Positions 17,498 through 21,126 of a stretch of 32,000 nucleotides of DNA are shown in pieces. Each line of letters opens with the position of its first letter. The stretch's first letter is position 1. Origin of the DNA: Candidatus Electrothrix sp. GW3-4 (GTDB taxonomy: Bacteria > Desulfobacterota > Desulfobulbia > Desulfobulbales > Desulfobulbaceae); contig NZ_CP147990.1 in NCBI RefSeq assembly GCF_037902255.1, positions 1,380,001 to 1,412,000 of the forward strand, in the 5' to 3' direction. The notes below the pieces were generated by a model. That model worked only from the letters and a program-made list of their open reading frames with translations, was not told the origin of the DNA and did not search any database. Made by a program: the position numbers and the translations under genes.

Positions 17498-17552
17498 TAG
17501 AGGATAAGATTGATGGCCTGGTAAAAAGTCAGAAAACAGCAATTCGCTAACG

Positions 17553-17569
17553 GTAACTCAATGAGTTAC
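17553..17569. promoter_or_regulatory. perfect 17-bp palindrome GTAACTCA-A-TGAGTTAC (possible operator)
   Basis: Read directly from the sequence. It lies about 70 nt upstream of the two-CW gene start. A direct repeat cgcgattttt/cgcgatttt follows at 17572-17590. Confidence 0.3.
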
Positions 17570-17639
17570 AACGCGATTTTTCGCGATTTTGGACTTTTTA
17601 CGAAACCATCAAGATTGTAAAAAAAAGGAATTCGAGAAA

Positions 17640-17954
17640 ATGAAAAAACAAAACTGTTGGGAAGTAAAAAAATGTGGGCGGGAGCCTGATGGAATACGGG
17701 CTGATGAATTTGGAGTCTGCCCTGCTGCTGAAGAGGATAAGGCTGACGGAATCCACGATGGTGAGAACGGTGGCCGCTGCTGCTGGGTGGTTGCCGGGAC
17801 CTTATGTAAGGGCGAAAATGCCCAGGGATCTTATGTAGATAAGTTTACTGCTGATTGCCAGAAATGTGATTTTTACGCTATGGTCAAACGGGAGGAGGAA
17901 CCGAATTTTAAAATTGGTTTATCCATCTTAAAGGAAATACGACAAAAGAAGTAG
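17640..17954 (+). CDS. small Cys-rich protein of the 'two-CW domain' type
   Basis: The ATG at 17640 has aagga about 10 nt upstream. The 104-aa product carries 9 Cys in the pattern NCWEVKKCG...GVCPA...GGRCCWVVAGTLCKG...ADCQKCDFY. From memory this matches proteins annotated 'two-CW domain-containing' in sulfate-reducer genomes. I have not verified this. Confidence 0.7.
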   Translation: MKKQNCWEVKKCGREPDGIRADEFGVCPAAEEDKADGIHDGENGGRCCWVVAGTLCKGENAQGSYVDKFTADCQKCDFYAMVKREEEPNFKIGLSILKEIRQKK

Positions 17955-18010
17955 GGGGACTGTAACGTTAAACTGATGGGCATGGTAACGCCGGGAAGAA
18001 AAGCTTATTT

Positions 18011-18578
18011 TATCCCGGCGGGCCAGTATACATAAATCGAGTAGGATGCGGTGGGGTAAATCACGCTCACCTCATCCCTTCGTAATTGAGAAGGGCTTTT
18101 GTGGCTCATATCCCCCCCCGACGAACACAGCCCGCCAGGTTATTCCTCCGGTTTTATCCTTCACGCTGTTACCTGGTTTTACTGGCTGGAATTTCAACAC
18201 GACTACGGAATCATCTGCCACCTCTCACTGCTTCAGAACGTCCTTGGATCTCTCCTTGTTCCTTCCTCTCTCAAATTTTGAGAACAGCAAGAGGCTTCCC
18301 CGGTTAAGGGGAACTTCCTATGAGCAATCGCGTGCTCAAGCACGCAAATAGAGCTGACCGGATATCGGGCGTCACGATATTTCGAACGGTTACCCCTCTA
18401 TCGCGCCGAATCAGGTTCGCTTGCGCTATGTACCACTCACTTTCTATCGCTTCCTTCAGACCCTGCCGTTGCCAGCACGCCCCCGGAGTCTTCGCTTACC
18501 TGCGATTCGAATTGTCTTCCCCCTGGTCGGGGTGGCGCCTGTTTAACCCTGGCTGAGTTTGCCCGCCATGCCGGGTAA
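18011..18578 (-). ncRNA. candidate large structured non-coding RNA or element (~570 nt), family not recognised
   Basis: There is no credible ORF. All three plus frames are open only because the plus strand is pyrimidine-rich, which makes the minus strand purine-rich. The ends pair: cccggcgggc at 18014-18023 with gcccgcc-atg-ccggg at 18561-18575. Internal perfect hairpins lie at 18076-18095, 18269-18283, 18296-18313 and 18330-18345. The strand assignment is tentative. Confidence 0.35.
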
Positions 18579-18581
18579 ACA

Positions 18582-18619
18582 AAAAATCCCTACCTGCACC
18601 AAGGCCGGTAGGGATTTTT
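18582..18619. terminator. bidirectional intrinsic terminator hairpin
   Basis: aaaaatccctacc (18582-18594) pairs with ggtagggattttt (18607-18619) as a 13-bp stem. A/T tracts flank both sides, so it could terminate transcription from either direction. Confidence 0.6.
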
Positions 18620-18737
18620 GGGTGGGTGTTGCTCCTCGCTCTTTTTGAGGCAAGGGGCTGAAGATTCTCAGCGGAAAAAATTACAGCGGACAGCGCGTTT
18701 TTGACAATCCACGGCCTGAGTCAGGACGCGGAGATTA

Positions 18738-19541
18738 TTATTTGTCTGCACTTGCCTTGTTATGGTGGTATTCTTCCAACACCTCAAGTTCCTTTTCCAG
18801 CTTTTCCACTGAGGCCAGAACTATCACCGGTAAGGCTCCTTTCTCGATATCAACAAAGAATTCCTTGGCAACTGGCCAAAATTCGTTGATTTTATTTCGG
18901 CTGGCCAAGGTGTTGCCTGTGTATTTAGTATATGCATTGATTTTGGATATGGTAGTTTCAAAATCCTGCACAGCCTGCTTTAACTGGACAACATTATTAT
19001 AATCATTAAAACCTGCCTGATAGGCAATGTAGAACTTGTTAATCCTTTCGAGAAGAAAAAGCAGCTCTTCTACCGCAACAAGCATGCTTTCTTCAGCATT
19101 ATTCTTATGCAGATGCTGGTCAGCAACAAACTCTGACCCCTCCAGCAGGGACTCGCTATAGTCGATCATCAATGCCCCGTTTTCCTTACTGTACGGTTTT
19201 TTGACAATGTCTAATAACTCATCCAGGGTATACTCAAGGTAGGTTACGATGTTTCTTTCTTCCTTGCTTCCCTTCTTCAGCCCGTCTTGGATGACGATCA
19301 GGTCCTTCTGCAAACGGGCAAGACTTTTTTTCAGGTCCTCGGTTGCACGGTCAGAGCGAACACCCTGTTGCTTATAAAAATACGCCTTGGTGATCGTTTG
19401 GCTGGAAAATTTTATATTTTCGGCCGCCTCTACGGTCAACAGATCATGCTTCAAGTCAGCTGCAAATGCGGGAACAACGTATAATGCGCAGAATATACCT
19501 GCTGTTACATACTTTACTGTCTTCTTCATTGTCAATTTCAT
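18738..19541 (-). CDS. secreted all-helical protein with two PilJ/NarX-N-terminal-like sensor repeats, no output domain
   Basis: The Sec signal is MKKTVKYVTAGIFCALYVVPAFA-A. Two PilJ-like motifs are present: IKFSSQTITKAYFYKQQGV and VEELLFLLERINKFYIAYQAGF. The start ATG (19541-19539) shares one nucleotide with the upstream TAA stop. An alternative start lies at 19529. Confidence 0.75.
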   Translation of the reverse strand: MKLTMKKTVKYVTAGIFCALYVVPAFAADLKHDLLTVEAAENIKFSSQTITKAYFYKQQGVRSDRATEDLKKSLARLQKDLIVIQDGLKKGSKEERNIVTYLEYTLDELLDIVKKPYSKENGALMIDYSESLLEGSEFVADQHLHKNNAEESMLVAVEELLFLLERINKFYIAYQAGFNDYNNVVQLKQAVQDFETTISKINAYTKYTGNTLASRNKINEFWPVAKEFFVDIEKGALPVIVLASVEKLEKELEVLEEYHHNKASADK

Positions 19542-20485: not shown

Positions 20486-21126
20486 CGAAATAAGGAATTA
20501 TTTCGCATAAAAAGCTGATATAGATAAGAATGTCCCGAGCACACTTGGTTCTCCAAACCATCTTGTTTGGTTATGATGCTGGAATATTCGCCTTTGCGCG
20601 CAAACGGGAGCGGAAAAATATTTCCGCTGGCAATACCACATCAACGGCCTGAAGTAAAAAAGACAAGGTACTGTGCGAAAGACTGAGGGGGATGGCGGTG
20701 CTGACGTATCGCCACGCACCACGAATGGAAAACGTACTTGGATGGAATAGAGTTCTCATAACATACCTTCCGATATAGGTTACAGGTAAAAGCAGGCAAC
20801 CCGGCTATCTCCTCCCTGGAGACCCGTGGCTTTCCGACACCGCCTCGCGACGGCTGTGGCTTTATCAACTTTCCGTTTTCCAGCGGAAAGCAGGCACCCA
20901 CTTAGTTTTAACGAGGGATTGCCATTTGTTACGAATTTATACAGAACGAAAAGTATCTGTTCTGTTGCGCAGCCCATGAAAGGCTGGCAAAGAGTTGAAG
21001 CACCGTCTTCTTCATGTCGACAGACGCTGGAACATCACCTGTTCCTAACTGGAAACGCCTTTGGTGGGTGGGGCGTCAGTTATTGCTTCAACGTGCAATG
21101 AACTTACAGGGTTTTGTTAGCCCTGT
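20486..21126 (+). ncRNA. second hairpin-dense non-coding segment (~650 nt): candidate structured RNA or long leader; strand uncertain
   Basis: No credible ORF is present. The minus frames are open because the plus strand is purine-rich. Perfect helices lie at 20486-20505, 20553-20570, 20609-20628, 20869-20890, 20941-20965 and 21106-21126. A palindrome tttgcgcgcaaa sits at 20593-20604. A long-range 9-bp pair, gttgaagca (20992-21000) with tgcttcaac (21084-21092), encloses nested helices. Confidence 0.3.

Follow-up and report, generated by a model that had tools for sequence, protein, structure and literature searches.

Organization of the locus

The window analyzed here is a 32,000-nucleotide stretch of the genome of Candidatus Electrothrix sp. 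GW3-4, a cable bacterium, and all positions given below refer to this 32-kb window. The segment under study, 18011-18620, lies between two convergent genes, as the earlier sequence-only reading had stated: a plus-strand open reading frame for a 104-residue, Cys-rich protein ends at 17954, and a minus-strand frame for a 267-residue protein ends at 18738 (Table 1). The Cys-rich protein has no Pfam match, and its gene is kept as the convergent neighbor in all four of the Electrothrix loci examined. The 267-residue protein matches one of Candidatus Electrothrix sp. GW3-4 with 100% identity. Its gene is translationally coupled to a gene for a PilJ-N-domain protein, and this two-gene operon is kept across Ca. 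Electrothrix species. A c-di-GMP-I riboswitch lies ∼340 nt upstream of the PilJ-N-domain gene.

The segment itself contains no credible protein, in agreement with the same reading. Two plus-strand frames, at 18046-18351 (101 aa) and 18320-18556 (78 aa), showed no Pfam match, and a protein-coding interpretation of them was discarded for want of any family match. Further, a gene caller called zero genes in the segment on L001, a Logan contig from another sequencing run that spans the whole element at 99.8% identity. A second contig, L002, covers the 5' part of the element at 100% identity; L001 and L002 come from consecutively numbered sequencing runs and probably represent the same organism.

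Table 1. Coordinates of the locus features and of the parts of the intron remnant
Feature	Position	Strand	Basis and remarks
ORF, 104 aa, Cys-rich	17640-17954	+	Convergent neighbor; MKKQNCWEVKKCGREPDG...CCW...
Whole element, 545 nt	18036..18580	-	Lacks IEP ORF and domain V; termini are those of the family
Domain VI	18036..18081	-	Putative bulged branch-point A at 18042; 3' end ...CCUACUCGAU
Deletion junction	18069..18081	-	Domain IV CGAAGGG fused to domain VI GGGAUGAGG at short microhomology
Domain IV, 5' remnant	18082..18156	-	G8 run and local hairpin; collinear with L229 (∼430-487), L216, L137, and L242
Domain III	18157..18202	-	CGUGUUG...CAGCGUG-AAGGA; putative, from alignment and helix by sequence
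J2/3 region	18219->18211		GGCAGAUGA; 3' of domain II
Domain II	18221..18294	-	CCUCUUGCUG...CAGUGAGAGG; putative, from local fold and alignment
Domain I	18298..18575	-	RF02001 and alignment to relatives; boundaries set by homology with the IIC architecture
Domain I motif CCCGGCAUGG	18575->18566	-
Domain I motif UCUGAAGGAAG	18460->18450	-
Domain I closing CCGGGG	18303->18298	-
Intron 5' end GUUUA	18576..18580	-	Lineage consensus GUUUG
Terminator	18581..18619	-	Intrinsic, bidirectional-looking; A-run, stem ATCCCTACC with GGTAGGGAT, TTTTTT; 5' exon and DNA target
ORF, 267 aa	19541-18738	-	Gene whose terminator hosts the intron
PilJ-N-domain gene	20455->19541	-	Coupled to the 267-aa gene
c-di-GMP-I riboswitch (RF01051)	20792-20870	-	56.4 bits, E = 1e-8

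Identification of a class C group II intron remnant

The 545 nt that run from 18580 to 18036 on the minus strand are the remnant of a class C (IIC) group II intron, which is a known kind of element. Its domain I core was recognized by the Rfam model RF02001 (group II D1-D4-3), which matched 18478->18309 with a score of 35.9 bits, above the gathering threshold of 32 (E = 6e-4 over all 32 kb), and is collinear with that of the relatives described below. RF02001 and the c-di-GMP-I riboswitch were the only families to reach gathering level in the 32-kb window; a permissive scan of 17500-19100 (1.6 kb, E <= 10) returned nothing relevant beyond RF02001, and RNase P, tmRNA, SRP, 6S, OLE, GOLLD, ROOL, HEARO, raiA, and similar models, to the extent that Rfam 15 includes them, gave no match. 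The sequence-only reading had been unable to match the segment to a group II intron signature and had put it forward as a candidate large structured RNA. The RF02001 score, which exceeds the gathering score, overturns the first statement and, as a significant match to a known family, also removes the novelty, which that reading had itself made dependent on the outcome of such a search. Since no Rfam family beyond RF02001 is significant in the region, nothing supports the Desulfotalea motif that it had mentioned.

The termini of the element were compared with those of 20 canonical IIC introns, which we took from viral contigs by the pattern CCCGGCATGG-N-TCTGAAGGAAG; a 15-nt pattern, ATAGCGNNAGCGAACCT, was also tried on viral contigs and gave chance matches only. 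All but one of the 20 displayed (i) a terminator hairpin, (ii) a T-run (TTTTT), (iii) GTGCG or variants of it, such as GTGTG and GTACG, and (iv) CCCGGCATGG, and the full-length canonical introns end in ...CCGCCGTAT...GGTGGTGTGAGAGG...CCTACTCGAT. The window carries a hairpin (18619->18586) followed by TTTTTT/GTTTA-CCCGGCATGG (the slash marking the junction of target and intron), and ∼545 nt further on ...CATCCTACTCGAT ends at 18036. From this comparison, we identify the terminator as the IIC insertion target and 18580->18036 as the element. The terminator directly adjoins G1 of the intron at 18580, which is the insertion context of IIC introns, and at the other end a domain VI with a terminal AY is present, where ...CAUCCUACUCGAU ends at 18036 with three broken pairs. 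The terminator had been described before, at 18582-18619, as bidirectional and abutting the segment; its A-run, its stem of ∼9-11 bp, and its six T are all present, but it is the insertion target of the intron, not a mere neighbor. A repeat search of the 32-kb window found no second copy of the element.

The structural features that had set the segment apart were confirmed only in part. At least four perfect 6-bp hairpins had been claimed for 18011-18620; we counted six, compared to 1.1 ± 1.3 in 1000 dinucleotide shuffles (0.9% of which held six or more), and these hairpins are inherited intron helices. The end-to-end helix does contain 10 bp, which 1.4% of shuffles matched, but its bulge measures 5 nt rather than 3 nt and it is not a P1-type closing helix: its 3' arm (18014-18023) falls outside the element, in flanking DNA that is different in every relative, and since the helix pairs the first 20 nt of the intron with this site-specific exon DNA, it is not part of the element. 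The plus strand is indeed rich in pyrimidines (57.9%, against a window mean of 48.9 ± 3.7%), but it stays inside the range of minus-strand coding DNA (window maximum, 59.8%), and a purine-rich minus strand is normal for the group II intron ribozyme family. The folding energy of the whole segment is unremarkable (z = -1.78 for the minus strand and -0.74 for the plus strand).

A novel large ornate RNA closed by the end-to-end helix, as first proposed, could draw on the 10-bp helix, on the enrichment of hairpins, and on the minus-strand z score; we give this proposal next to no credence, because homology to a known intron family explains the whole length, the helix draws its 3' arm from DNA that no relative shares, and orthologous loci show no conservation of the element (see below). 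What persists of the original proposal is a noncoding, minus-strand segment of structured character, and what does not is its status as a new or rare ornate RNA.

The promoter that had been suggested on the minus strand, TTGTCA-N16-TGTAAT, is present as a motif at 18707->18680, but it fails the -10 criteria of our promoter scan. We rejected it as a promoter, as it is weak, is not kept in E. aestuarii, and is located upstream of the terminator. Lying between the stop codon of the 267-residue gene and the terminator, it would, if active, yield only a ∼90-nt transcript that ends at the terminator.

The parent intron lineage

A metagenome scan with the pattern GGGAAGACAAT-N20-50-TCTGAAGGAAG recovered at least 120 related loci. 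Among the matches listed, a hairpin and a T-run precede every captured 5' end, and all but one of these ends start with GTTTGCCCGG, the sole exception having GTTCG where the rest have GTTTG. The listed relatives with a detected 3' end finish in ...GAGCCGTAT...ACGGTTCTGTGAGAGGG...CCTACTCGAT, which corresponds, in the listed loci, to the pattern ...GAGCCGTATACGAGGCCCGTACGTACGGTTCTGTGAGAGGG...CCTCACCCTACTCGAT. The termini shared by the relatives listed and by the copy in D. psychrophila can be written as hairpin-TTTT/GUUUG...CCUACUCGAU, and two viral contigs also start with hairpin-TTTTTT/GTTTG.

The element measures ∼2.08-2.15 kb in 16 of the 19 listed loci with both ends captured. Its ORF encodes an intron-encoded protein (IEP) of 420-440 aa, a group II reverse transcriptase (RT)/maturase with RVT_1 and GIIM domains. 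This protein most resembles the IIC reverse transcriptases 7uim and 6ar1 and shares 81% identity with a D. psychrophila protein that carries the annotation group II intron RT/maturase. Homologs of this IEP number in the thousands, many of them named from Desulfobulbales-type genera (Desulfopila, Desulfofustis, and Desulforhopalus). The chromosomal copy in D. psychrophila LSv54 (L242) comprises 2094 nt with the family termini, within ∼2.8555-2.8598 Mb of CR522870.1, and D.p.I1 is listed as a divergent class C intron (PMC3552965).

Domains V and VI of the family are 98.8% paired, with nine covarying pairs. A recognizable domain V was found in all 43 distinct 3' ends of relatives (40 intact and three with small indels), and its pairs are 99% formed in the 40 aligned relatives. 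Two features separate the parent lineage from canonical IIC introns: (i) a 5' GUUUG in place of GUGYG, the canonical group II 5' consensus, and (ii) an AGC triad in domain V (GAGCCGUAU), compared to CCGCCGUAU in the canonical IIC introns sampled, the window copy having no domain V. A literature search that combined 'GUUUG' with group II introns found no paper mentioning this 5' motif. The parent lineage, with its 5' GUUUG, AGC triad, and terminator targeting, is highly abundant in metagenomes of sediment and marine origin.

Several further observations concern the lineage. Its first 24 nt (GUUUGCCCGGCAUGGCGGGCAAAC or GUUUGCCCGGCGAAGCCGGCAAAC; L115-L234, L242, and 18557-18580 of the window) could form a terminal hairpin of 9-10 bp in both variants, and such a hairpin would compete with the long-range stem of domain I. 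Full-length copies are arranged head to tail in L129, L229, and L162 (...CCTACTCGAT/GTTTGCCCGG), the second copy in L162 being without GTTT. Numerous metagenome and viral contigs terminate within the intron, which is expected of a multicopy repeat that breaks assemblies. In L209 (1-74), a full-length member directly follows a 5S rRNA gene, that is, behind the terminator of an rRNA operon.

An internal deletion removed the maturase ORF and domain V

Positions 1-512 of the window intron align collinearly to positions 1-∼490 of L229, L137, and L242, with 74-77% identity in the closest full-length relatives; in L164, the alignment of the 5' segment stops at intron position 434. Positions 502-545 align to the last ∼44 nt of the relatives (∼2050-2094), which is domain VI. 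The retained 5' portion thus reaches through domains I-III into the beginning of domain IV. The ∼1.56 kb missing between the aligned segments correspond to the remainder of domain IV, including the IEP ORF, and the whole of domain V. No RT/maturase ORF is found in the window copy. Intron positions 502-512 are shared by both BLAST segments, and there CGAAGGGGUGA of domain IV is similar to GAGAGGGAUGA of domain VI, which suggests a microhomology-mediated deletion between these two sequences.

The loss of domain V was examined with two covariance models. RF00029, the Rfam model for domains V and VI, matches the relatives but gave no match on 17500-19100 even at E <= 10. A model built from domains V and VI of 40 family sequences (R1) gave a single match in the 32-kb window, at 18102->18036 with 19.9 bits. 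In this match, 12 unrelated nucleotides stand where the model has its 29 domain V positions, and three of the pairs in domain VI are nonstandard. A domain V hairpin of ∼34 nt with an AGC or CGC triad and a 2-nt bulge is accordingly missing from the element. The local hairpin in the domain IV remnant bears a partial resemblance to the 5' strand of domain V, and GGGCUGUG...CACAAAAGCCC (∼18131->18091) was considered as a diverged domain V; we rejected it, as it is collinear with domain IV of the relatives and R1 skips domain V.

These results bear on whether the element could be a functional ORF-less group II intron, acting either on its own, as a HYER-type ribozyme that needs no protein, or with the help of a maturase that a full-length copy elsewhere in the genome would provide in trans. 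Such introns do occur: domain V is retained in the ORF-less relatives L036, L138, L192, and L195, genomes contain many canonical ORF-less IIC introns, and in bacteria an ORF-less intron is usually accompanied by related full-length ones (PMC4424553). An autonomous ORF-less IIC intron combines domains I-III with domain V, however, and the window copy lacks this catalytic center, of which none was found in the 32-kb window; its 5' motif is also mutated and helices of its domains I and VI are broken. To our knowledge, a maturase cannot substitute for domain V, and this holds against a supply in trans as well. We consider a functional ORF-less intron extremely unlikely.

A related possibility is a retained, domain V-less RNA that would fold the scaffold of domains I-III, either to work with a domain V or IEP provided in trans or to serve as a maturase decoy. 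We deem this very improbable; if true, it would be the bacterial equivalent of introns that are fragmented or resemble group III, or else it would sequester the maturase of active D.p.I1-like introns in the cell.

Sequence decay of the window copy

The remnant has diverged further from the family consensus than its relatives have. Its RF02001 score is 36 bits, compared to 43-73 bits in the relatives, and its 5' terminus reads GUUUA (G5->A), with an A at position 5 in the window copy only. The 5' part of domain I has five broken consensus pairs versus none in 27 of 36 relatives, and the next domain I segment has two versus none in 20 of 36, as counted in MAFFT/RNAalifold segment alignments that include a few misaligned distant relatives. 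We give these counts for the two domain I segments only, because whole-length MAFFT and RNAalifold analysis of domains I-III yielded a poor consensus, with no pairs predicted for domains II and III. Moreover, the window copy deviates at 12 of 146 near-invariant columns, compared to 0-3 deviations in 28 core members, and its domain I contains a 17-nt insertion relative to the relatives. On the other hand, 74-77% identity to active-looking relatives and the many intact helices indicate that the copy is not very old or not fully randomized.

Empty sites in sister species

The same convergent gene pair is present in E. aestuarii, E. gigas, and E. communis, with spacers of 263, 63, and 461 bp, respectively, and no intron similarity was found in the spacers of these three syntenic loci. 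E. aestuarii keeps a homologous terminator hairpin without an intron, which is an empty site. Since three sister loci are without the intron and one of them is an empty site, the insertion is lineage specific and dispensable.

The sister loci also weigh on a possible exaptation of the remnant, as a structured 3' UTR or read-through RNA, as an IEP decoy, or as a spacer that insulates the convergent genes. The hairpin count above chance would fit such a role, as would the persistence of the element in L001 (99.8%) and, for its 5' part, in L002 (100%). However, the hairpins are inherited intron helices, the substitutions break conserved pairs rather than compensate for them, and the absence of the element from all three sister-species loci examined implies that the locus works without it; persistence in L001 and L002 is uninformative on selection, because both probably derive from the same organism. 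An exapted function is, in our judgment, highly unlikely.

A proposed history of the element

We are confident that the element is a dead, internally deleted D.p.I1-like IIC intron behind the terminator of the 267-residue gene, and the following course of events would account for it. On the branch that led to Candidatus Electrothrix sp. GW3-4, a mobile D.p.I1-like IIC intron would have retrotransposed into the site immediately downstream of the rho-independent terminator of this gene. A later internal deletion of ∼1.56 kb, probably between the short similar sequences named above, would have taken most of domain IV with the RT/maturase ORF and all of the catalytic domain V. This would have left the 545 nt of domains I-III, a domain IV stub, and domain VI, in which mutations would have been accumulating since. 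Having neither domain V nor a protein, the remnant can neither splice nor move. It would be transcribed, if at all, solely by read-through of the terminator, and it probably has no function of its own.

Relation to known introns

The D.p.I1-like introns, as represented by L242, are among the closest known systems. They share with the window element the context of terminator hairpin and T-run, the 5' GUUU(G/A)CCCGGCAUGGCGGGCAAAC and the 3' end CCUACUCGAU, domain VI, and domains I-III, which are 73.6% identical over 512 nt; the window element differs by the lack of the ∼1.56 kb that hold the RT/maturase ORF and domain V, by G5->A, by the 17-nt insertion, and by the broken pairs. Canonical IIC introns (O.i.I1, B.h.I1, and GsI-IIC; RF02001 and RF00029) have in common with it a compact domain I with UCUGAAGGAAG and CCCGGCAUGG, insertion at an intrinsic terminator, and a domain VI with the 3' end ...CCUACUCGAU, as well as an En-less IEP in the case of the parent lineage.

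ORF-less IIC introns, with the HYER ribozymes that Liu et al. reportedly described in 2024 (cited in PMC11754743) among them, resemble the element in size (∼500-650 nt), in their derivation from IIC introns, and in the lack of an ORF. They keep an intact domain V and 5' motif, however, and are often multicopy, whereas the window element has neither domain V nor the 5' motif. A genome scan with the pattern TCTGAAGGAAG-N390-420-CCTAYYCGAT gave 55 matches, about half of them due to chance (∼34 expected by estimate), and yielded many canonical ORF-less IIC introns together with a closer relative, L036, from a Marinobacter MAG, which begins with GTTTG, has an intact domain V, and measures ∼510 nt by eye.

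Fragmented group II introns are common in bacteria, with 111 fragments in 90 Enterobacteriales genomes (PMC3522654), and ORF-less and degenerate group II introns are well described (PMC4424553). The window remnant is like such fragmented or degraded copies (PMC3522654; PMC4028801) in being an inactive partial copy with recognizable boundaries and an intron-free homologous site, but it arose by an internal deletion that kept both termini, not by end truncation. The group III introns of Euglena likewise keep domains I and VI without a domain V (PMC4424553); these, however, are 90-120 nt long, lie in essential genes, and are spliced by a presumed trans-acting machinery, whereas the window element occupies the spacer between two genes, behind a terminator, where splicing is neither needed nor evident.

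Biologically, the element is minor: an ordinary genomic fossil that adds another decaying copy to a mobile intron lineage already catalogued. Intron finders that rely on the IEP or on domain V miss such relics, which can therefore be mistaken for novel structured RNAs. The 780-bp 'gene desert' that separates the convergent Electrothrix genes should be annotated as a group II intron remnant.

Two sets of shortened introns came to light alongside this analysis. The genome-scan matches L025-L077 include ∼25 canonical ORF-less IIC introns of ∼500-650 nt with a GUGYG-type domain I and a CGC-type domain V; these introns are spread over Firmicutes, Bacteroidota, Proteobacteria, and Acidobacteriota and are far commoner than older surveys suggested. 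Within the parent lineage, the shortened members L036, L138, L192, L195, L170, L131, L120, and L165 have lost most or all of the ORF but retain intact domains V and VI (L192 and L195, with both ends captured, measure ∼850 nt), and they are candidates for HYER-like or trans-mobilized derivatives.
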